Shown here piece by piece: positions 8,097 to 60,420 of a stretch of DNA of 64,000 nt. Below the pieces are notes generated by a model that did not search any database, had not been told where the DNA came from, and saw only the letters and a program-made list of their open reading frames with translations. The position numbers were made by a program, and so were the translations under genes. The DNA lies in assembly GCA_002373995.1 (NCBI GenBank), contig DFLB01000026.1, forward strand, positions 70,127-134,126, in the 5' to 3' direction. Positions within the stretch are counted from its first letter, which is position 1. Every line of letters begins with the position of its first letter. Source of the stretch: Bacteroidales bacterium UBA3630. Its GTDB lineage: Bacteria > Bacteroidota > Bacteroidia > Bacteroidales > P3.

Positions 8097-8166
8097 CTTT
8101 TTTTTAAATATATGGGGAAATATTGAGTATAAAATAAACAAATATATTTGTTCAATCGATTTTAAA

Positions 8167-8330
8167 AACGGCTAAAATGAGTGTCACAAGGCCCAAACGA
8201 TTTTGGAAACGGCTAAAATGAGTGTCGCAAGGCCCAAACGATTTTGAAAACGGACAAAATGAGTGTCGCAAAGGCCAAACGATTTTGAAAACGGCAAAAA
8301 AGAGTGTCGCAAGGCTGTTTCAAAATTAAA
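8167..8330. repeat. Tandem repeat, four units of about 41 bp (AACGGCTAAAATGAGTGTCGCAAGGCCCAAACGATTTTGAA)
   Basis: Direct reading shows units at 8167-8207, 8208-8248 and 8249-8289, plus a degenerate fourth unit at 8290-8330. Confidence 0.85.
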
Positions 8331-8354: not shown

Positions 8355-8550
8355 GAGCCCCGTAGGGGCGACATTATTTAGCCGTGGGCGTAAGCCCACG
8401 GAATGAAATCGAGAAAACACTTTGAGCCCCGTAGGGGCGGCACATTCCAACGATGGTTATTGTGTCGCCCCTACGGGGCTCAGCTGTTTGGTTTATTGTC
8501 TACCATGGGCTCACGCCCACGGCTAACATCTGTCGCCCCTACGGGGCTCT
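8355..8550. repeat. Nested inverted repeats built from the GC-rich palindromes GAGCCCCGTAGGGGCGAC and CCGTGGGCGTAAGCCCACGG (REP/MITE-like)
   Basis: A 47-bp module at 8355-8401 recurs inverted at 8504-8550. An inner inverted pair lies at 8424-8440 and 8464-8481. Confidence 0.8.
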
Positions 8551-8553
8551 ACG

Positions 8554-11034
8554 CTATCCGCGGATTTTCGCGCCCAGCTGGGTCTCGAGGGTCTTCTGGA
8601 TCTTGGCCATAGTGGACTCGATCTGTTTGTCGTTGAGGGTCTTGTCCTTGTCCTGCAGGATGAAGCTGACGGCGTAGGATTTCATGCCCTCGGCGATGCC
8701 CTTGCCCTCGTAGACGTCGAAGAGACTGACGCGCTTGAGCAGTTTCTTCTCGCACTGCATAGCGGCCTGCTCGATGGCGGCGAAGGTGACGTCCTTCTTC
8801 AGGATGAGGGCCAGGTCGCGGCGCACCTCGGGGAACTTGGCCACTTCCTCGTACAGCACCTCCTTGGCGGGGTACTGCTTGAGGAGGAGCGTCCAGTTGA
8901 GGTCGGCATAGTAGACGGGCTGCTTGATGTCCATCTTCTTCAGCGTCTCGCGGCCGATGCGGCCGAGGGTGCCCAGCAGCTGCTTGCTGTCGCGCTGCAC
9001 GATGTCGAGGCCTTCGGCGAAGAATTTGTACTGCGTCGGAACCATCTCCACGCGGCCCATGTTGACGCGCATGCGGTGCAGGATGTCAATGACGTAGGCC
9101 TTGAGGTAGAAGAAGTCGGCCTCGGCGGGCTTCATCTTCCAGCTCTCGGGCGTCATGTTGCCGGTGAGGAAGATGCTGACATGCTCGGTCTCGTTGAAGC
9201 GCTTGGTGACAGGCAGCTCCTGGTTGGCGGCCTCGTCGGTCTTCACGTAGCTGCGGCCGAACTCGTAGAGCTTCTGGTCGTGGATCTTATAATTAATGTT
9301 ACGCGCGATGCACTCGAGGCCGCTGTAGAGCAGCGTCTGGCGCATGACGTTGAGTTCCTTCGACAGGGGGTTGATGATGGGGATGCAGCGGTCGGCCGGG
9401 AAGTCGGGGTTCTCGTCGTAGTATTCGCTCTTGGTGAGCGAGTTGTTCATTATCTCGCTGAAGCCGTTGTCGGTGAGGTAGTCGCTCACGGCGTTCTTCA
9501 GCTTGCGCGGGTCGGGCTTCTTGCCGTAGGAGAGGCAACTGTTGACCGTGGTGCCGATGTGGATGTTGTTGTAGCCGTAGATGCGCATGATTTCCTCCAC
9601 GATGTCGCACTCGCGCGTGACGTCGGCCTTGCAGGTGGGCACACGGAGGGTCATGCCCTCGGCGTCCTCACGCACAATCTCGATGTCGAGCGAGGTGAGG
9701 GCGGTGCGCACGGCCTCCAGCGGGATGTCCTGCCCCACGAGGTCGAACATGCGGCGGAAGTTCACCTCCACCGTCGGACGCTCAATCTTGTTGGGGTAGA
9801 GGTCCACCATCTGGCCGCAGATGTCGCCGCCAGCCAGTTCGCGGATGAGCTTCACGGCGCGGCGCAGGGCCCACTCGGTGATGTTGGGGTCGCAGGTGCG
9901 CTCGTAGCGGTAGCTGGCGTCGGTCTTCAGCGTGTGGCGCTGGCTGGTCTTGCGGATGCTCACGGGGTTGAAGAAGGCGCTCTCGAGGAAGACGTTCGTG
10001 GTCTCCATGCTCACGCCGCTCTTCTGTCCACCGAAGACACCGGCGATGCACATACCCTCGTTCTCGTCGCAGATCATCAGGTCGCGGGCGTCGAGCGTGC
10101 GCTCCACGCCGTCGAGGGTGACGAATTTGGTGCCCTGCGGCAGACGCTTCACGACGACATGGCCGCCGCCGATCTTGTCGGCGTCGAAGGCGTGCAGCGG
10201 CTGGCCCACCTCCATCATGACGAAGTTGGTGACGTCGACGATATTGTTGATGGGACGCAGGCCCACGGTGCGCAGACGGTTCTGCAGCCACTCGGGGCTC
10301 TCCCCTACCTTCACATTGCGCAGCGTGATGCCGGTGTAGCGCGGGCAGAGGTCGGGCTCCTCCACGGTGACGCGGATGGCCTTGTCACTTTCCACTTTCC
10401 ACTCTCCACTTTCCACTTCCGGCCACTTGATGGCCAACTGCTTCCCCTCGCGGGTGTTGCGGACGGCCACCACGTCGCGGGCCACGCCGATGTGCGAGAT
10501 GGCGTCCATGCGGTTGGCCGTGATGGCCACCTCCAACAGGCAGTCGTCCTTCACGTGGAAGTACTCCTTGGCGGGCATTCCCACCGGGGCGTCGTCTGGC
10601 AGCACCATGATGCCGGCATGGTCGGTACCGAGCTGCAGCTCGTCGGCAGCGCAGAGCATACCCTCGCTGACAGCGCCGCGCAGCTTGCCTTTCTTGATCT
10701 CGTAGTATTCGGTATCGGAGGTATAGATCTTGGTGCCTATCTGGGCGCACACCACCTTCTGGCCGGCGGCTACGTTGGGGGCGCCGCAGACGATGTTCAG
10801 CGGACGCTCGCCGCCCACGTCGACGGTGGTCAGGTGCAGGTGGTCGCTGTCGGGGTGCGACTCGCAGGTCAGCACCTGCGCTATCACCACATGCTCCAGA
10901 CCGCCCTTGATGGTCTCCACCTTCTCCATGCTGTCCACCTCCAGGCCGGAGAAAGTCAGCAGGTCGTCCAACTGTTGAGGAGTCATATCCTCAATATCCA
11001 CATACTCTTTAAGCCAGTCAAAAGAAATATTCAT
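8554..11034 (-). CDS. pheT: Phenylalanine--tRNA ligase beta subunit
   Basis: 826-aa ORF. Start MNISFDWLKEYVDI, followed by a tRNA-binding domain, B3/4, B5 and a C-terminal FDX-ACB domain ending SLFDVYEGKGI...SYAVSFILQD. Confidence 0.95.
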   Translation of the reverse strand: MNISFDWLKEYVDIEDMTPQQLDDLLTFSGLEVDSMEKVETIKGGLEHVVIAQVLTCESHPDSDHLHLTTVDVGGERPLNIVCGAPNVAAGQKVVCAQIGTKIYTSDTEYYEIKKGKLRGAVSEGMLCAADELQLGTDHAGIMVLPDDAPVGMPAKEYFHVKDDCLLEVAITANRMDAISHIGVARDVVAVRNTREGKQLAIKWPEVESGEWKVESDKAIRVTVEEPDLCPRYTGITLRNVKVGESPEWLQNRLRTVGLRPINNIVDVTNFVMMEVGQPLHAFDADKIGGGHVVVKRLPQGTKFVTLDGVERTLDARDLMICDENEGMCIAGVFGGQKSGVSMETTNVFLESAFFNPVSIRKTSQRHTLKTDASYRYERTCDPNITEWALRRAVKLIRELAGGDICGQMVDLYPNKIERPTVEVNFRRMFDLVGQDIPLEAVRTALTSLDIEIVREDAEGMTLRVPTCKADVTRECDIVEEIMRIYGYNNIHIGTTVNSCLSYGKKPDPRKLKNAVSDYLTDNGFSEIMNNSLTKSEYYDENPDFPADRCIPIINPLSKELNVMRQTLLYSGLECIARNINYKIHDQKLYEFGRSYVKTDEAANQELPVTKRFNETEHVSIFLTGNMTPESWKMKPAEADFFYLKAYVIDILHRMRVNMGRVEMVPTQYKFFAEGLDIVQRDSKQLLGTLGRIGRETLKKMDIKQPVYYADLNWTLLLKQYPAKEVLYEEVAKFPEVRRDLALILKKDVTFAAIEQAAMQCEKKLLKRVSLFDVYEGKGIAEGMKSYAVSFILQDKDKTLNDKQIESTMAKIQKTLETQLGAKIRG

Positions 11035-16579: not shown

Positions 16580-18283
<1,704 letters not shown>

Positions 18284-19107: not shown

Positions 19108-20238
19108 CTACTCATTAACGACCAGAGAGACAGCCAGACGGAAGAACAGCTGCGCAGCTGGCTCGATGAGGGCGTCGGGAAATTCGTAAGATGGATGGTG
19201 GAGTTCGGGCTGATGCTCGCCGCTGCCGATACCGAACATAGCACCATTGTAGTGCAGCAAATATTCGGCAAAGTCCTCGCTCCATCGGTTGGGCTGGTCT
19301 TGAAATTGAAAATTGAGAATTGAGAATTGAGAATTATCCTGCGGGGTGGGTGCTTCGCAGGCTTTCCTTATCTCCTCCACGCAGTCGGGAGTGTTCTCGG
19401 TGGCGTGGAAGGGTTCCTGGAGCATGCGGGAGACCTTGAGGCCGTGGCGGGTGGCGATTTCGTCGACGGCGGCGTTGGCGTCGGCGAGGAGGCGCTGCAT
19501 GACGTCGTTGGTAAAGGCGCGGAGGGTGAACATCACATCGGCATGGCCGGCCGAGGTGCCGAAAGCGGGCTCTCCCACCCTCACACAGATGAGTGTGGAC
19601 TGACGGAATGGGCCAGGTTGCCCGTTAAAGGCATTGAACCTGCCGATTATCTCACTGACTGCCAGGCCGGGGTTGAGTCCCAGCTCAGGTGTAGAGGCAT
19701 GGGTTTCGCGGCCGTCGAGGTGGTAGATGACACCTGTGGAGGCAGCGGCGAAAGTATTCGGACAAAGGACAACGGTGCCCAACGGGTAGCCGGGGAGGTT
19801 GTGCAGGCCGTAGAAGCGCACAATATTGTACTGCTGGAGGATGCCGCTGTCGAGCACAGCTTGCGAACCGGTGCCGGTCTCTTCGGCCGGCTGCCAAAGA
19901 AGGAGAATGTTGTGAGAGTTTTTGCGTGTTGCAACAGTGTTGCAACATACATGACCATCGACGAGTTCGGCGAGGCGGAGGAGGATGGTGGTGTGACCGT
20001 CGTGACCACAACGGTGGCCGATGGGGAGGGCGTCAGTGTCGGCGCGGAAAGCGACGGTGGGAGCCTGCGGGTCTTTGCCCCAGACAGCGATGACGCCATA
20101 GCCCCCCACATGAGTGTAGACTTTGTCGGGGTGGAGCTGCTGGAGGTGACGGATGATAGTGTTATGGGCAAAGCGCTCGTTGCCGGCGGTCTGCGGGTGC
20201 TCGTGGAGCTGGTGGCGTATCTCTTTATAATCAATCAT
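19108..20238 (-). CDS. M20-family amidohydrolase (aminoacylase/HipO-like)
   Basis: 376-aa ORF. Motifs HEHPQTAGNE, AFRADTDALPI and HRCGHDGH. Confidence 0.85.
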   Translation of the reverse strand: MIDYKEIRHQLHEHPQTAGNERFAHNTIIRHLQQLHPDKVYTHVGGYGVIAVWGKDPQAPTVAFRADTDALPIGHRCGHDGHTTILLRLAELVDGHVCCNTVATRKNSHNILLLWQPAEETGTGSQAVLDSGILQQYNIVRFYGLHNLPGYPLGTVVLCPNTFAAASTGVIYHLDGRETHASTPELGLNPGLAVSEIIGRFNAFNGQPGPFRQSTLICVRVGEPAFGTSAGHADVMFTLRAFTNDVMQRLLADANAAVDEIATRHGLKVSRMLQEPFHATENTPDCVEEIRKACEAPTPQDNSQFSILNFQFQDQPNRWSEDFAEYLLHYNGAMFGIGSGEHQPELHHPSYEFPDALIEPAAQLFFRLAVSLVVNE

Positions 20239-20246
20239 AATGTTTT

Positions 20247-20678
20247 CTCAATCAGATCTTATAATCTCATACTTTCAATCAGATTTTAAAAGATTATTTT
20301 TTCTCAATCAGAACGAAAAGAACTTGAAGATTATTGTTTTTTTCAATCAGATTTTAAAAGATTTTTCTTTTTTTTTCTCAATCAGAATGAAAAGAATTTA
20401 GAAAATATTGTTCAATCAGATTTTAAAAGATTTTAAAAGATTTTTCTTTTTTTTCTCAATCAGAATGAAAAGAATTTAGAAAATATTGTTCAATCAGATT
20501 TTAAAAGATTTTAAAAGATTATTTTTTTTCTCAATCAGAATGAAAAGAACTTAAAGAATATGTTCATTTTTCAATCAAATTTTAAAGGATTTTTCAATCA
20601 GATTGTAAAAGATTGTAAAAGAGACAAAATGGCGGATGCAGGGAACGGTTCTTTTCAAATCTTTTACAATCTGATTGA
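20247..20678. repeat. AT-rich complex tandem repeat (units of about 75-78 bp) ending in a perfect 21-bp inverted repeat
   Basis: Near-identical units start at 20377, 20455 and 20530, with degenerate copies on both sides. TCAATCAGATTGTAAAAGATT at 20594-20614 is the exact reverse complement of 20658-20678. Confidence 0.85.
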
Positions 20679-20681
20679 GTC

Positions 20682-22019
20682 TTATTTTTTGAGCTTTAAA
20701 ATCTGTTCACGGTAGAAGTCGCCGCGGTGCTCGAAATTGCGGAAAGCATCGTAGCTGGCGGCGGCGGGGGAAAGGAGGACTACCCCACCCTGCGGGGTGT
20801 GGGAGGCGCACCAGGGGACAATCTTGGTGTAGTCGTTCTCGACGATATAAGTTGGCAGTTGGCAGTTGGCAGTTGACAGTATTCTGCGGCCGGCGGCACC
20901 GACGAAGACAAGGTTAGGGACGGGATGCTCCTGCAGGAAGTCGACGAGGGGGGTGTAGTCGATGCCGCGGTCGAAGCCGCCGAGGATAAGTGTGTCGACA
21001 CGACCAAGGGCGCGCACAGCAGCGATGGCGGCGGCAGGAATGGTGGAGATGCTGTCGTCGTACCAGGTGATGCCCTGCACCTCGCCGATGCACTCCAAGC
21101 GATGGCGAAGGCCATGGAAAGTTGAAAGTTGAAAGTTGAAAGTTGAAAGTGGCTGACGCGTAACCAGACTTGCCACACGGCAGGCCACGAGGGCGTTGCT
21201 GCGGTTGTGGTCGCCCTCCAGAGGGCAGGCGTCGAGGAGTTGCCGCTCTTCGTCGGTGATGTCGTGGAGGCTATAGGGGTGGAGGGAGGAGTGTGGATGA
21301 GTGGGAGGATAATAGTGGATGTGCGCCGCAAGCGGTGCATCACAGGACAAAGCGGCATTGGTGACAGAGTGGGCAACGAGGTCGCGAAGCTCGGCGTTGT
21401 CGGTGCAGTAGAAGAAGTGGTCGCCTTCGCGCTGGCGGAGAGCTATCTGGAACTTAGCCATCTTGTAGCCGAGGTAGTTCTCGTAGTGGTCGAGATGCTC
21501 TTGGAAAAGATTGAGCAGTACGGCGATATGCGGGGCGCGGCGGATGTTCTCAAGTTGGTGGCAGCTGAGTTCGGCCACAACGAGGCTGTCTTCACGAAGC
21601 TCGTCGAGAATATCGAAGAGGGGGATGCCTATATTGCCGGCGAGGATGGAGCCGGGCAGCAGGTGATGGATGAGGGAAGCGGTGGTAGACTTGCCTTTAG
21701 TGCCGGTGACGCCGATAGTGAGGTCGCCATAGACCTGCAGGAAGAGGTCGGTGAGGGAAGAAAGTTGGTAGTTGGCAGTTGGCAATTGAAAGTTAGGGAT
21801 GCCGGGGGACTTGATGACAAGGTCGAAGGGCCAGTCGGTATGCCATTGGTCGTCAGGGGATTTCCAGCGGCCGTCAACGACTTGGGTAGCGATGGTGTAA
21901 TGAGCCTCGGGCATGAGGCGTTGTATCAGGCGCTCGGCGCTTTGGCCTTCGCGACCGTAGCCAGCAATCAATATGCGACGGTCGAGGAGAAGGGCTTTCA
22001 GTTGATCTTCTCTGTACAT
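20682..22019 (-). CDS. MurD-like UDP-N-acetylmuramoyl-L-alanine--glutamate ligase (possible MurD2 type)
   Basis: Start set at [11 protein letters not shown]. Rossmann motif ILIAGYGREGQS and Mur-ligase P-loop VTGTKGKSTT. The longer 507-aa reading overlaps the upstream gene. Confidence 0.8.
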   Translation of the reverse strand: MYREDQLKALLLDRRILIAGYGREGQSAERLIQRLMPEAHYTIATQVVDGRWKSPDDQWHTDWPFDLVIKSPGIPNFQLPTANYQLSSLTDLFLQVYGDLTIGVTGTKGKSTTASLIHHLLPGSILAGNIGIPLFDILDELREDSLVVAELSCHQLENIRRAPHIAVLLNLFQEHLDHYENYLGYKMAKFQIALRQREGDHFFYCTDNAELRDLVAHSVTNAALSCDAPLAAHIHYYPPTHPHSSLHPYSLHDITDEERQLLDACPLEGDHNRSNALVACRVASLVTRQPLSTFNFQLSTFHGLRHRLECIGEVQGITWYDDSISTIPAAAIAAVRALGRVDTLILGGFDRGIDYTPLVDFLQEHPVPNLVFVGAAGRRILSTANCQLPTYIVENDYTKIVPWCASHTPQGGVVLLSPAAASYDAFRNFEHRGDFYREQILKLKK

Positions 22020-23536
22020 GCAACTTGAAGTATTTGGCGTTCTTCGGGGGTGAGGTTGCCGATGGGAGACAGAATGGATAGCGAGGATAGAGGGGATAGC
22101 GGGGATAGTTGTATTGATTGCAATAGATTGGGTTTCTTTTCTTTGTACCAGCGTTGGACGGCCATCTGGAGGGCTTGGCGCACCTCGCTGACGGTGCCGA
22201 CGCACTCGAAGGGTTTGGTCTCGGCCAGCCCGAGGAGCTGGCGGAACTCAAGTTCGAGGGAAGTGTCGTCGAGCATCGATTTGCCGAAGATGGCGTTGAG
22301 GCGGTCAGGAGCTATGAAGGGAGAAAGAATGATGTAGGCGAAGAGGCATTTGGCGCAATGGCCGCACCAGATGTCCTGCTTGCTGCCGACGTTGCAGGAG
22401 CGGAAGACGTCGTGGTAGGCCGAGAAGCGGCTAAAGAGCATGGCTATCTGCAACTCGCTCAGCGGGCGGAGAAAGGAGAAGTAGTTGTAAGTGGGCAGTT
22501 GGCAGTTGGCAGTTGGCAGTGGGTAGTTGGCAGTGGGCAGTTGGTAGTTGGCAGTGGGCAGTTGGTAGTTGGCAGTGGGCAGTGGGCAGTGGGCAGTGGG
22601 CAGTTGGTAGTTGGCAGTGGGCAGTGGGTAGTGGGCGACATAGCTGCGGAAGTCGTCTTCGAACTCAAGGCTTTTGCTGTATTGGTGGTTGACGCTGGTG
22701 CCGAGGACAGTGCTCTCGTTAGCGGAGTTCTCATTGCTGAGAGCCACATTGGGGATGCCGCTGATGACGGCTGCCAGATGGGTGTAGAAAGCCAACATTG
22801 CGCTGAAAGGCGTGTGGCCATTGAGATAACGGTGAACGGTCGCTCCTGTTTGGTCGCGTTCAGTTTCACTGTTGAGATCGAGGAGAGTCTTGTCAATGGT
22901 GCGGCGGATGACAAGGACTTCATCTATTGGAAATCCAGCCACGCGAGCGCACTCGATGGTGGCTCCGCGGGGGTTCATGATCAGAGGACGGATAGATTTG
23001 CCCGCCCGACGCAGCAGTTCAAGTGTGACGACGCTGTCCTTGCCCCCTCCGATGGGGACGAGGTAGAGGTCGGAGGTATGAGGTATGAGGTCAGAGGTTT
23101 TCTTTGGTTTAGAGTTTTCGGTTCTGTTCTCCGACTTCATACATCCAACCTGCATAAAGGCCTCGGCCGACTCGCTGATGCCGTTGGTGTAGAAGAACTC
23201 GCCGAGGCCGTGCCAGTAGAGTTTGCGCCAGAAGGAGATCTGATTGTCGGTCAGGCTGCCGCAGTGAATTCGAACAGTGGGCGGGCAGGCGCATTTCCAG
23301 TAGCTTATCAGTTCAATCATGCCGATATTGAACACCAGGAGTTCGAGGTTGCCTGCAGAGAAGTCGAGGAAAGGGCGGCGTTCGATGAGGGCTGTGGGGT
23401 GGAACTCCACTGGGCCCATGCGGAAGTCGAAGCGCAGGTGCAGGCCGTCGGGTTCCACGTGCCAGTGGTAGTCCTCATAGTCGAAAAACGGGTACTGTGC
23501 CCGCAACTGATTGTATTTGCTCATCATGACGATCAA
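21998..23536 (-). CDS. PP-loop (adenine nucleotide alpha-hydrolase-like) protein, candidate MurL-type UDP-MurNAc-L-Ala-L-Glu epimerase
   Basis: 512-aa ORF. PP-loop-like [12 protein letters not shown] and C-terminal CGHCAKC. Overlaps the start of the MurD-like gene by 22 nt. Contains three in-frame short-period repeat arrays. Confidence 0.55.
22484..22637. repeat. Heptanucleotide microsatellite, about 22 units of GTKGGYA
   Basis: Counted unit by unit on the plus strand. On the minus strand it is translated as (PTANYQL)n. Confidence 0.95.
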
Positions 23537-31753: not shown

Positions 31754-32632
31754 TTATCTTATGATGGTTACGGTTCCTTTTTCCTCACGCAACACACCCT
31801 CGCTGTCGCGGAAACGGGCCACCCAGACGTATGTTCCCTGCGGCAGATGTTGTCCGTCGTAGGTGGCATCCCATCCGCGGTTGATGTCGGTGGAGGAGAA
31901 GACCTGGCGTCCGCCGCGGTTGAAGATGTAGAGGTGCAGGTCAGACACGGGCGACGCCGCCGACAGGCGGAATATCCTGTTCTGTTCGTCGTCGCTCGAC
32001 GGCATGATGACGTTCGGGGCCCACAGGGTGTTGCTCTGCTGCGTGGCAACAGTTTGATTTGAAAGCTTGTAGCCGGTAGATTGCAGCGGCTGCGGGCTGT
32101 CGGTTGCGGGCGGGTTCTCTTCGGTCTTGCTGGCTTCGAAGTCGGGTTCTGGCGTTGACGATTGATTGTTGACAGCTGGCAGTTGGCGGTTGGCGGTTGG
32201 CGGCACAACGGCTGACACCGCATTCGGCTCGCCGCTCGCCGTATTGTTTTCCGCCATCTGACTTTCCGCTACTGGCGGCAGCTGGATACTGGTAGCAGAT
32301 GACTGGTCGGTCACATGCTCACGGCCGATGGGTGTCCTTGTATCGGGCTCAGGGCTGACGGTTGCCGGTTCGACGGCCGTCGTGGTGGGGCTGGAGGTTG
32401 TAACCTGCTGGTGGTATGACGGTTGAGGGCTGACGGCTGAGGCCTGAGGACCAGATGCCGACCTCCGGGTTCCGAGTTCCATGGCAGCAGCCACTCCAGC
32501 AACCACCAGGAGCACGCCCGCTGCCACCCCGCCCACGCGCATCCAGCGGCGGCGACGGAGGCGGCGCTCTATTCTCTCAAACATTCCCTCGTCGGGATCC
32601 ACGTTATACTTCTTCAAATCAATCATATCCAT
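31754..32632 (-). CDS. Anti-sigma-like membrane protein with a C-terminal T9SS type B (gliding-motility CTD) domain
   Basis: N-terminal FERIERRLRRRRW plus one TM helix. Low-complexity linker. C-terminal NVIMPSSDDEQNRIF...WDATYDGQHLPQGTYVWVARF...GTVTIIR. Confidence 0.6.
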   Translation of the reverse strand: MDMIDLKKYNVDPDEGMFERIERRLRRRRWMRVGGVAAGVLLVVAGVAAAMELGTRRSASGPQASAVSPQPSYHQQVTTSSPTTTAVEPATVSPEPDTRTPIGREHVTDQSSATSIQLPPVAESQMAENNTASGEPNAVSAVVPPTANRQLPAVNNQSSTPEPDFEASKTEENPPATDSPQPLQSTGYKLSNQTVATQQSNTLWAPNVIMPSSDDEQNRIFRLSAASPVSDLHLYIFNRGGRQVFSSTDINRGWDATYDGQHLPQGTYVWVARFRDSEGVLREEKGTVTIIR

Positions 32633-33255: not shown

Positions 33256-33335
33256 TCGGACCGCCAATCGTCCGTCTTTCATCGGACCACCCTCGGACCA
33301 TCATCGGACCATCCTCGGACCATCCCCGGACCAAG
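33256..33335. repeat. 11-12-bp phased tandem repeat (TCGGACCATCC type)
   Basis: Consecutive units at 33282, 33293, 33304 and 33315, with degenerate copies upstream. The array lies 90-170 bp upstream of the sigma-factor start. Confidence 0.7.
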
Positions 33336-34087: not shown

Positions 34088-34102
34088 AGGCGGCTGGTGG
34101 AT

Positions 34103-34185
34103 GGTAGCTGGTAGCTGATAGCTGGTAGCTGGGAGCGAGTAGTCATGGTCAACCATAAGCTTCCAGCTACCAGCTACCAGCTACC
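34103..34185. repeat. Inverted pair of heptanucleotide arrays, (GGTAGCT)4-5 and (CCAGCTA)3, forming a long hairpin
   Basis: The left arm is 34103-34136 and the right arm 34163-34185. The loop contains the palindrome ATGGTCAACCAT. The hairpin spans the stop of the upstream gene and the 5' end of trmO. Confidence 0.85.
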
Positions 34186-35200
34186 TGCTTATGTTACGCC
34201 ATACGGCGTCGAAGTCGGCTTTGTTTTTGAGCAGGGTGTTGGGGATGTCGAGGGAATAGGGGCAGCGGCTTTTGCAGAGGTTGCAGTGGACGCAGAGGTC
34301 TATCTTGTCCATTTCGCGGCGCCAGGAGTCGGTGACGTAAACGCTGTGCGGGGCGCGTTGGAGGAAGAGGCTCATGCGGTTGCAGTCTTGTATTTGGATG
34401 CCGACGGTGCAGGGTTGGCAGTAGCCGCAGCCGCGGCAGAAGTCGCCGGAGAGCTCACGGCGGTCTTTTTCGATCAGTTGCAGCATATCTGCTGTCAGCG
34501 CCGGCGGGTTGTCCTGATAGGACAGCCATTCGTCGAGCTCGGTTTCTTTCTGTATGCCCCAGATGGGGGCCACCTCGTATTGTGCCAGCCAAGCGTAGGC
34601 GGCGGCGGAGTGGGTGATGAGGCCACCGCTGAGGCCTTTCATGCAGATGAAGCCCATATCAGAGGCGAGAGTGCGTTGCACGATGTCGATGTCGGCTTGC
34701 GAAGCCAGGTAGCTGAAGGGGTATTGGAGGGTTTCGTAGAGGCCGCTTTCGATGGCTTCCACGGCCACGCGCTGACGGTGGTTGGTGATGCCGATATGCA
34801 GCACTTTGCCCTCACTCACAGCTTGTTCCATTGCCTCGTAGAGTCCGCTGCCGTCGCCGGGTTTGGGGCAGAACGGGAGGTTGTGGAACTGGTAGAGGTC
34901 GACATGGTCAGTGCGCAGCAGGCGCAAGCTGGTTTCGAGGTCTTTGCGGAAACCCTCGGCGGTTGTGGCACCTGTTTTGGTGCTAATTATCACCTCGTTG
35001 CGGCGGCCTTCGAGGGCGATGCCGAGCTTCTCCTCGCTGTCGGTGTAGAAGCGGGCGGTGTCGAAGTAGTACATGCCGCCGTCGAGGGCGCGGCGGACGA
35101 GCCTGACGGCGTCGGCCTGGCTGATGCGTTGTATGGGGAGGGCCCCGAATCCGTTGCGCGGCACGACGAGGCCGCTGCGTCCAAGTCTTACTTTCTGCAT
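34181..35200 (-). CDS. Aldo/keto reductase with C-terminal 4Fe-4S cluster domain
   Basis: Start at MQKVRLGRSGLVVPRNGFG. AKR core. C-terminal CRGCGYCQPC and CVHCNLCKSRCP. Confidence 0.8.
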   Translation of the reverse strand: MQKVRLGRSGLVVPRNGFGALPIQRISQADAVRLVRRALDGGMYYFDTARFYTDSEEKLGIALEGRRNEVIISTKTGATTAEGFRKDLETSLRLLRTDHVDLYQFHNLPFCPKPGDGSGLYEAMEQAVSEGKVLHIGITNHRQRVAVEAIESGLYETLQYPFSYLASQADIDIVQRTLASDMGFICMKGLSGGLITHSAAAYAWLAQYEVAPIWGIQKETELDEWLSYQDNPPALTADMLQLIEKDRRELSGDFCRGCGYCQPCTVGIQIQDCNRMSLFLQRAPHSVYVTDSWRREMDKIDLCVHCNLCKSRCPYSLDIPNTLLKNKADFDAVWRNISR

Positions 35201-48338: not shown

Positions 48339-48457
48339 GGTAATGTGTTTTTTAGGTAACTTTAATGTTATTTTAACTGGCGACAAATATACAAAAAAAA
48401 TTATTAGTGGGGAGGAAAAACGAAAAATAAAACGGCGGGATGTGCGGCCTTGGATGT

Positions 48458-48545
48458 GCTTAGGATATGCTTAGGATATGCTTAGGATATGCTTAGGATA
48501 TGCTTAGGATATGCTTAGGATATGCTTAGGGAAGGGTTAGGGTAC
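48458..48545. repeat. 11-bp tandem repeat: GCTTAGGATAT in six perfect units plus two degenerate units
   Basis: Counted directly, with units starting at 48458, 48469, 48480, 48491, 48502 and 48513. The array lies about 110-200 bp upstream of the tRNA promoter. Confidence 0.95.
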
Positions 48546-48695: not shown

Positions 48696-48769
48696 GGCCC
48701 CTTAGCTCAGTTGGTTAGAGCAGCTGACTCATAATCAGCGGGTCCTTGGTTCGAACCCGAGAGGGGCCA
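48696..48769 (+). tRNA. tRNA with CAT anticodon (Met, or Ile2 if lysidine-modified)
   Basis: The cloverleaf was read by eye. Acceptor stem GGCCCCT/AGGGGCC, D-arm AGCTCAGTTGGTTAGAGC, anticodon loop CTCATAA, T-arm GGTTCGAACC. Confidence 0.9.
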
Positions 48770-48777
48770 CAAAAGGA

Positions 48778-48834
48778 GGAAAGTGGGAAGTGGAAAGTGC
48801 AAGACGGCTTTCGACTTTCCACTTTTGACTTTAC
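48778..48834 (+). terminator. Hairpin made of inverted GGAAAGT heptamers downstream of the tRNA
   Basis: AAGTGGAAAGT at 48788-48798 pairs with ACTTTCCACTT at 48814-48824. T-rich sequence follows. Confidence 0.5.
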
Positions 48835-53131: not shown

Positions 53132-56995
<3,864 letters not shown>

Positions 56996-60330: not shown

Positions 60331-60420
60331 GTATGCCTATGTAATGCTTAGGATATGCCTACGTTGTGCTTAGGATGAGCTTAGGATATGCTTAGGGTGA
60401 GCTTGGGGTGAGGGGGATTG
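60331..60420. repeat. Degenerate 11-bp phased repeat related to GCTTAGGATAT
   Basis: Successive 11-mers read ATGCTTAGGAT, GTGCTTAGGAT, GAGCTTAGGAT, ATGCTTAGGGT and GAGCTTGGGGT. The array lies 40-130 bp upstream of the promoter at 60457. Confidence 0.75.

Follow-up and report, generated by a model that had tools for sequence, protein, structure and literature searches.

We analysed a 64,000-nucleotide (nt) stretch of the Bacteroidales bacterium UBA3630 assembly (GCA_002373995.1, contig DFLB01000026.1, positions 70,127 to 134,126; hereafter the window), in which a tandem array of 7-nt units lies in the middle of a minus-strand homologue of murL. This gene overlaps a second minus-strand gene encoding a MurD2-type Mur ligase, and by homology the two are predicted to form a MurD2/MurL-type pair in which the murL product would be the epimerase. 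The array and the features of the two genes are as follows:

22483-22636, in the minus-strand murL gene: heptanucleotide array, 21 units plus degenerate edges (Tandem Repeats Finder (TRF), unit parsing and translation of the open reading frame (ORF))
21998..23527, minus strand: murL homologue, 509 amino acids (aa) from MMSKY (NCBIfam NF041275; Pfam domains on homologues)
23033..23059, minus strand: PP-loop-like motif VPIGGGKDS, invariant columns in orthologue alignments
23060..23098, minus strand: second heptanucleotide array, GAGGTAT type, period 7, 4.7-5.7 copies (TRF), adjoining the PP-loop upstream
22066..22108, minus strand: 9-nt array, GGATAGCGG type, near the MurL C-terminus (TRF 22076-22108, period 9 x 3.7)
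20682..22019, minus strand: MurD2-type Mur ligase gene, 445 aa (TIGR01087 murD, 250 bits, cut-off 212)
20850-20880, 21115-21150 and 21760-21794, in the minus-strand murD2 gene: three heptanucleotide arrays (TRF)
21998..22019, minus strand: 22-nt overlap of the murL stop and the murD2 start (coordinates and conspecific gene calls)

TRF called the long array at two periods: period 7 at 22490-22636 (21.0 copies, 85% matches, score 189) and period 21 at 22481-22636 (7.4 copies, score 242). Counted from 22484, it comprises 20 GTKGGYA units and one degenerate unit at each end (GTTGTAA and GTGGGCG). The plus-strand units can be written AGTTGGC, AGTGGGC, AGTTGGT and AGTGGGT (consensus AGTKGGY), and the unit on the coding (minus) strand is (C/A)ACT(G/A)CC. 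The longest murL ORF (21998..23536, minus strand, beginning at a TTG at 23536) is uninterrupted across the array, which is read in all three phases as seven heptads of the form (Y/C)(P/Q)LPTA(N/H) and is followed by NYFSFLRPL; the repeat occupies residues ~302-350 of 512, and frame conservation argues that it is translated. The window MurL is identical to public protein P0121 and matches NF041275 (E 4.9e-66; 223 bits, equivalog cut-off 700) in two stretches interrupted by the array, and precomputed annotation places the Pfam domains MurL_N and MurL_epimerase_C on its close homologues. No RNA family from Rfam matched on or near the array, no inverted partner of the array occurs in the window, and shuffling its mononucleotides yielded zero period-7 arrays at the threshold used, compared with 13 observed. 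A canonical G-quadruplex motif, G3-N4-G3-N4-G3-N4-G3, lies at 22567-22594 on the plus strand, which is the template for murL, where four GTGGGCA units stand in series; its spacing, G3N4 in the GGGCAGT variants of the unit, is that of the quadruplex-forming GGGAATC repeats of Xanthomonas (PMC4692102).

To place the array within the protein, we compared orthologues. At the array site, 28 of the 67 aligned sequences have only 6 residues (for example, AYCPSF), while the window has 53, and the array is therefore an insertion and not an ancestral domain. In an AlphaFold2 model built on the orthologue alignment (mean pLDDT 67), residues 305-348 have a pLDDT of ~26-27 and no secondary structure, and they lie between a helix (290-301) and a strand (351-354). 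The array thus probably sits in a tolerant, dispensable and disordered loop of MurL. The two minor arrays of the gene also fall in regions of pLDDT < 50: the one at 23060-23098 (residues 131-153) is stable in conspecifics, and the segment with the 9-nt array (residues 483-495) is variable among orthologues.

Much of this had been anticipated in the first-pass annotation, a model's reading of the sequence. It had described about 22 GTKGGYA units at 22484-22637, translated in frame with a 7-residue period, within an ORF intact from VPIGGGKDS upstream to CGHCAKC downstream; unit parsing gave 20 fitting and two degenerate units, the ORF translation agreed exactly with the heptads as quoted, and both motifs and the intact ORF were recovered. 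Both of the further short-period arrays that it reported in the same ORF were found by TRF (23060-23098 and 22076-22108), the 22-nt overlap with a murD-like gene recurs in gene calls on conspecific contigs, and the alignment it had proposed for telling an insertion from an ancestral domain decided for the insertion through the 6-residue state. Absent from it were the many period-7 arrays across the genome and clade, the hot spot at the site with its hairpins in other species and an allele spectrum that favours purifying selection on the frame over free switching, to which we now turn.

Array length and reading frame within the species

Conspecific contigs, which share gene order and 95-98.7% nt identity with the window, came from sheep and other rumen assemblies. 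Since the first retrieval favoured full-length proteins, we repeated it using the N-terminal 297 residues of MurL, which capture truncated and intact products alike. Scans of JGI metagenomes were unproductive (no match to the exact flank pattern; one chance match and one other species for a codon-degenerate LPTYNYFSF pattern) and provided no unbiased sampling of alleles at the DNA level, so the N-terminal protein query was used instead. This query added one conspecific cluster, P0124 (307 aa), which derives from the 5-unit allele of contig L097. The alleles are:

21 units, in frame: the window and L096
21 units in another unit order, in frame: L081
18 units, in frame: L095
12 units, in frame: L094
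10 units, out of frame: L093
9 units, in frame: L082-L085
6 units, in frame: L086-L090
6 units, in frame: P0004 (number of units deduced from the protein)
6 units, in frame: L098-L100
5 units, out of frame: L097

Multiples of three make up 8 of the 10 distinct conspecific alleles and 23 of the 25 contigs, with the remaining two alleles and two contigs out of frame. The probability of at least 8 in-frame alleles in 10 at p = 1/3 is 0.0034, a rough value because of some dependence among the alleles. In-frame alleles were recovered from several samples, while the out-of-frame ones are single finds, each on a background near-identical to that of an in-frame allele: over 7,587 nt, one 7-nt unit is all that separates L097 from L099, and L093 departs from L094 at one mismatch and one 14-nt gap. 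On both out-of-frame contigs, gene callers report MurL_N (as a fragment) and MurL_epimerase_C on separate ORFs, so the array marks the boundary between the two domains; the truncated product of the 10-unit allele on L093 is P0123. These data agree with two expectations of the first-pass annotation, namely that only three-unit changes keep the frame (in-frame conspecific alleles have 21, 21, 18, 12, 9 and 6 units) and that a single-unit slip would inactivate the gene; slips smaller than three units do truncate the product, as the natural 5-unit and 10-unit alleles document. Elsewhere in the two genes, short arrays of 3-5 units are stable across conspecific contigs, with one exception in L085, where the murD2 array at 20850-20880 (CAACTGC x 4) is swapped for a CTACCCA-type heptamer with a net gain of 9 nt and the frame kept. 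Among conspecific contigs, the copy number of an intergenic array (25868) also changes, by one and two units.

We consider it probable that the array is a slippage-prone in-frame repeat filtered by selection on the reading frame. Replication slippage (slipped-strand mispairing) would add or remove the 7-nt units; that the array slips by single units is evident from near-identical contigs that differ by exactly 1 or 2 of them. Any change that is not a multiple of three shifts the frame and ends MurL ~12-20 codons beyond the array. Out-of-frame alleles would arise yet fail to persist, which would account for the alleles on diverged backgrounds all being multiples of three (6, 9, 12, 18 and 21). 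They may be purged because the MurD2/MurL route supplies D-Glu for peptidoglycan, and the Pro/Thr-rich heptads would act as a tolerated, passive linker. If so, a core cell-wall enzyme can bear ~50 residues of hypermutable, repeat-encoded loop, and natural populations reveal how the array mutates (single-unit slips) as well as how selection filters the outcome (only multiples of three persist). The murL array also offers a ready strain-typing marker for an uncultured rumen lineage.

A first concern is whether short-read assembly produced the array or its length. At ~150 nt the array is about as long as a typical short read, and two pairs of contigs with the same ends disagree by 1 or 2 units, as if one read set had been assembled twice. 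We nevertheless regard an artefact as very improbable. An independent ENA assembly record contains exactly the same array (L096, 100% identical to the window over 9,530 nt), another sample gave a different 21-unit allele, and others gave 18, 12, 9 and 6 units with consistent flanks. In addition, one read is easily long enough to cover a short allele (35-63 nt), and random errors would not favour multiples of three.

A more substantial alternative is a contingency locus. Simple-sequence contingency loci cause phase variation by slipped-strand mispairing and typically affect surface, host-interaction or restriction-modification genes. The murL array resembles them in being an intra-ORF tract with a unit not divisible by three, in the frameshifts that slippage would cause and in its copy-number polymorphism between near-identical contigs; it differs in lying in a cytoplasmic housekeeping gene and in an allele spectrum made up mainly of in-frame lengths. 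Its closest functional analogue is neuO of E. coli K1, which has 3-53 copies of 5'-AAGACTC-3' in its coding sequence, is out of frame in 65.6% of genomes and, in a 21-repeat strain, shows ~7% slipped cells (PMC13001214). In both genes a 7-nt unit is read in three phases, a full-length product is made only at unit numbers divisible by three, slippage is by single units and copy number is highly variable (3-53 in neuO, 5-21 here). The units share no sequence similarity, and the neuO tract occupies the 5' end of a capsule-modifying gene carried by a prophage, whereas the murL tract is mid-gene in a chromosomal gene for a peptidoglycan-precursor enzyme.

As a contingency locus, the array would switch murL, and possibly the coupled murD2, reversibly on and off, giving a bet-hedging mixture of cell-wall precursor states. 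The unit length and the length of the array are suited to this, given the slipped fraction in the 21-unit neuO tract (PMC13001214); two natural out-of-frame consensus alleles each have an in-frame twin on the same background, and in L097 an ATG-initiated ORF for the C-terminal domain begins 18 nt past the premature stop. However, neuO switches freely, whereas 8 of 10 murL alleles are in frame, and the out-of-frame share (2/10 alleles, 2/25 contigs) falls well short of the ~2/3 that is expected and is observed for neuO. The product is a cytoplasmic housekeeping enzyme without a surface or restriction-modification function, equivalent arrays occur in PheT, GlnRS and LigA (see below), where on/off switching makes no sense, and many species have no array at the MurL site. 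We therefore think it unlikely that the array is a free on/off switch, and retain frame-filtered slippage as the explanation of the allele series.

Arrays and hairpins at recurrent protein loops

In other species, the orthologous site (between LEFEDDFR and YFSFLRPL) holds in-frame inserts of 9 to 90 nt that differ in kind. The insert of L059 consists of four GGCAGTT units, a loop and four CCACTGC units (fold -42.1 kcal/mol), and L015 has another heptamer-armed hairpin (-38.7 kcal/mol). Hairpins built from 8-nt units (ACGCATTA type; -19 to -43 kcal/mol) occupy the site in L002, L003, L004, L006, L012, L027, L028 and L068. One-armed arrays are found as well, of GAATGAA in L016, L019, L032 and L051, of CAATTTT in L007 and L035 and of TTCGGAG in L020 and L026, and L014 and L030 have minimal 9-base pair (bp) palindromes. 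The window units match the right arm of the L059-type hairpin. In a neighbour-joining tree of 240 flanking residues, which has low resolution, the base state, hairpins and one-armed arrays are adjacent; this mixture among tree neighbours indicates that the site has often been remodelled, and vertical inheritance of one ancient insert is unsupported.

A second MurL loop, just before the PP-loop, which in the window holds the 23060-23098 array, shows the same tendency. In most related species it carries an in-frame hairpin, each arm made of four heptamers (for example, VESGKRKVES...LSTFHFSLST), with folds down to -74 kcal/mol and z-scores down to -13.7, and the heptamers differ among species while the arms stay complementary. 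Across the two loops, hairpins measure 72-114 nt and their arms are tandem 7-nt or 8-nt repeats. RNAalifold gave no consensus on the 84-nt hairpins before the PP-loop because repeat arms pair in several registers, and these hairpins were assessed by register scans and per-sequence folds. Mismatches in 31 hairpins from both sites comprised 23 G.U and 23 A.C pairs; equal counts favour palindromes at the DNA level over selection on a sense-strand RNA structure, and a selected mRNA structure is accordingly unsupported. A single family of mobile elements was ruled out, as units differ between sites in one genome and between species at one site.

The diversity of inserts also bears on whether the heptads themselves have a function, with tract length adaptively tuning MurL activity or inter-domain geometry. 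The tract lies exactly between the two Pfam domains, its coding orientation is Pro/Thr-rich in the manner of linkers, in-frame alleles of 6 to 21 units coexist in one species, and a higher repeat number reportedly raises neuO activity, in work cited in PMC13001214. We find a functional linker of this kind improbable all the same: 28 of 67 orthologues connect their domains by 6 residues only, other species hold unrelated sequences at the site (8-nt-unit hairpins and GAATGAA arrays), differing site states stand side by side in the low-resolution tree, and the heptads show no conservation beyond what the DNA repeat imposes. A passive insert in a permissive loop, lengthened and shortened by slippage, remains the better account.

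Arrays of period 7 extend well beyond murL. The window contains 13 of them, compared with 5 of period 11 and 0-2 each of periods 5, 6, 8, 9, 10 and 12. The 72 Bacteroidales loci fetched via MurL (831 kb) contain 207, or 24.9 per 100 kb, against 0.6 for period 6, 5.3 each for periods 8 and 11 and 3.1 for period 9. In contrast, seven Pseudobutyrivibrio loci with the murD2/murL pair had zero period-7 arrays, and distant Bacteroidales loci (MurL identity ≤55%) mostly had zero. The 220 period-7 arrays from the window and the related loci, among which the murL array is the longest, typically have 4-6 units and fall into >40 unit classes, the commonest being GAAAATT, GGAAAGT, GAGAATT, GGAGAGT and GAAAGTT. 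Of these arrays, 167 (76%) fall within ORFs of 200 aa or more, which cover 85.5% of bases, indicating that coding sequence is barely avoided. Within the window, translated arrays were found in the genes for PheT, GlnRS, a peptidase M20, MurD2 (three), a CHU_C type IX secretion protein and NAD-dependent DNA ligase (LigA), the last just upstream of the KYDG adenylation motif:

10381-10418, 16721-16748, 19300-19335, 20850-20880, 21115-21150, 21760-21794, 32162-32203 and 55859-55896: short heptanucleotide arrays (4-6 units) in window genes, translated

Two inverted heptamer pairs lie outside genes in the window. At 34088-34189, GCTGGTA is paired with TACCAGC upstream of a TrmO-family gene (31-nt arms, 90% complementary), and at 48780-48832, GGAAAGT is paired with ACTTTCC directly after a tRNA (48696-48769). 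Period 11 is favoured as well, with arrays at 48452-48530, 60344-60412 and 33282-33333; these include GGATATGCTTA x 7.2 (98% matches), a related ATGCTTAGGAT array and TCGGACCATCC x 4.7.

The murL array may have originated in a habit, shared by this clade of rumen Bacteroidales, of duplicating 7-nt stretches in tandem, often together with palindrome formation in protein loops that permit it. The arrays and palindromes of the clade could result from a lineage-specific bias towards 7-nt duplication, combined with template switching within quasi-palindromes, a mechanism of mutation already known, by which an expansion in one arm would be copied to the other. The window array would then be the CCACTGC arm of a hairpin alone, grown to 21 units. 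A preference for 7 nt through polymerase contacts has been proposed (Mrazek 2007, as summarised in PMC4679880), and the clade pattern bears on why seven bases should be a favoured slippage unit in bacteria. It is conceivable, though in our judgement unlikely, that an undescribed process at the DNA level, either an active system or a lineage-specific defect in replication or repair, builds and remodels heptamer arrays and palindromes at fixed hot-spot loops of essential genes (MurL, MurD2, PheT, GlnRS and LigA). Such a process would supply the core proteome with hypervariable linkers and, at long arrays, permit switchable knock-outs of a cell-wall pathway. Arrays and palindromes at recurrent loops of housekeeping genes provide a natural test of where proteins can accommodate insertions.

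Several observations weigh against reading the murL array as a slipping repeat held in frame by selection, or against parts of its proposed history. All alleles come from short-read metagenome assemblies, and because the ~150-nt array is at the limit of read length, the counts of 18 and 21 may be off. The 10-unit contig has 3.4x coverage and the same ends as its 12-unit twin, and the two may represent the same reads assembled twice. Conversely, if both out-of-frame consensus alleles are real, out-of-frame cells could sometimes dominate populations, which would fit phase variation better. MurL may also be dispensable here, as murI or a canonical murD could be encoded elsewhere in the genome, and translation of the array is deduced from frame conservation. 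Lastly, the loss of a left arm, by which a hairpin would become a one-armed array, is suggested by sequence resemblance, and the change may have run in either direction.

Comparison with known repeats and palindromes

As an in-frame heptanucleotide repeat, the murL array is of a kind already known. Dispersed heptameric repeats have been described as GGGAATC in Xanthomonas and GGGGAYT in Nostoc (PMC4692102) and as TAACTGA in Beggiatoaceae, cyanobacteria and five Bacteroidetes (PMC4679880), and the latter paper also summarises the heptameric simple-sequence repeats of prokaryotes treated by Mrazek 2007. As in our loci, period 7 is dominant and arrays are scattered, typically with 4-6 units and with occasional long arrays and inverted pairs. 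Reverse-orientation TAACTGA repeats are likewise translated as heptads (LSVISYQ), and their AACTG core is shared with the murL unit CAACTGC. However, the dispersed repeats are essentially of one unit per genome and mostly intergenic, with genic ones at the protein periphery, whereas here >40 unit types occur, ~76% of arrays lie within long ORFs and the sites are internal loops of housekeeping enzymes.

The hairpins of related species, in turn, recall the Rickettsia palindromic elements (RPE), which are inserted in frame in protein-coding genes, form ~150-bp families with conserved sequence and peptide and are thought to be mobile (PMC10969869). Both are short palindromes that lie in frame in otherwise unrelated housekeeping genes, where the protein fold can take them up; the MurL-loop hairpins of relatives measure 72-90 nt. 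Unlike RPE, the hairpins here have arms of tandem repeats whose unit varies by site and species, and the window array has no inverted partner. In the literature searched we found no description of heptanucleotide arrays in coding genes of Bacteroidales, although one may still have been published. We regard the combination of translated heptamer arrays across a clade with repeat-armed palindromes at recurrent loops of essential genes as a new variation on known kinds.

The MurD2/MurL pair and neighbouring features

The invariant VPIGGGKDS motif resembles the SGGxDS-type ATP pyrophosphatase motif. Sequence searches identified no relatives of MurL among solved structures, and Foldseek comparison of the MurL model with the PDB returned nothing below E = 0.68, giving only faint resemblances to PP-loop ATP pyrophosphatases. 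MurL is an ATP-dependent epimerase that forms AMP (PMC8788868), with which the invariant motif is consistent. The 22-nt overlap with murD2 may allow translational coupling, through which a slip in murL could also affect murD2, as the first-pass annotation had suggested.

In the MurD2 product, Glu and Arg occupy the two positions that determine the choice between L-Glu and D-Glu, which presumably correspond to D182 and K348 of E. coli MurD; alignment to the P. aeruginosa enzyme places LNLFQEHLD over LNVSEDHMD and GGFDRGID over GGDGKGAD. The residues that switch MurD2 between the two substrates are named in PMC8788868. Among 8,000 scored candidates, 7,993 were protein homologues of the MurD2/MurL pair at E ≤ 1e-10, and the relatives that we fetched from genomes were mostly from uncultured rumen and gut Bacteroidales, in addition to Pseudobutyrivibrio. 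The taxa named in a 2021 review of the MurD2/MurL pathway are confined to some Gamma- and Alphaproteobacteria and rare actinobacteria. A route to D-glutamate described as restricted to a few proteobacterial and actinobacterial genera thus has thousands of homologues in rumen Bacteroidales.

Three further features of the window were noted. The window strain carries a 33-nt in-frame insertion in murL at 22839-22871, which is missing from the compared conspecific contigs and from all other conspecific protein alleles; it is non-repetitive, could be a tract of recombination and has a cluster of substitutions just upstream. An AT-rich block (20243-20680) of nested 10-, 23-, 35- and 78-nt tandem repeats of the TCAATCAGATTTTAAAAGATT type lies in the spacer that separates murD2 (3' end) from the peptidase M20 gene (5' end) and contains a 29-nt inverted repeat (20594-20678); multiple overlapping BLAST matches to conspecific contigs suggest that the block varies in length among strains. 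Finally, two matches to the Acido-Lenti-1 RNA, at 8356-8401 (minus strand) and 8503-8548 (plus strand), flank a 22-nt perfect-stem palindrome at 8423-8482 and adjoin a 41-nt tandem repeat at 8153-8315 (4 copies).

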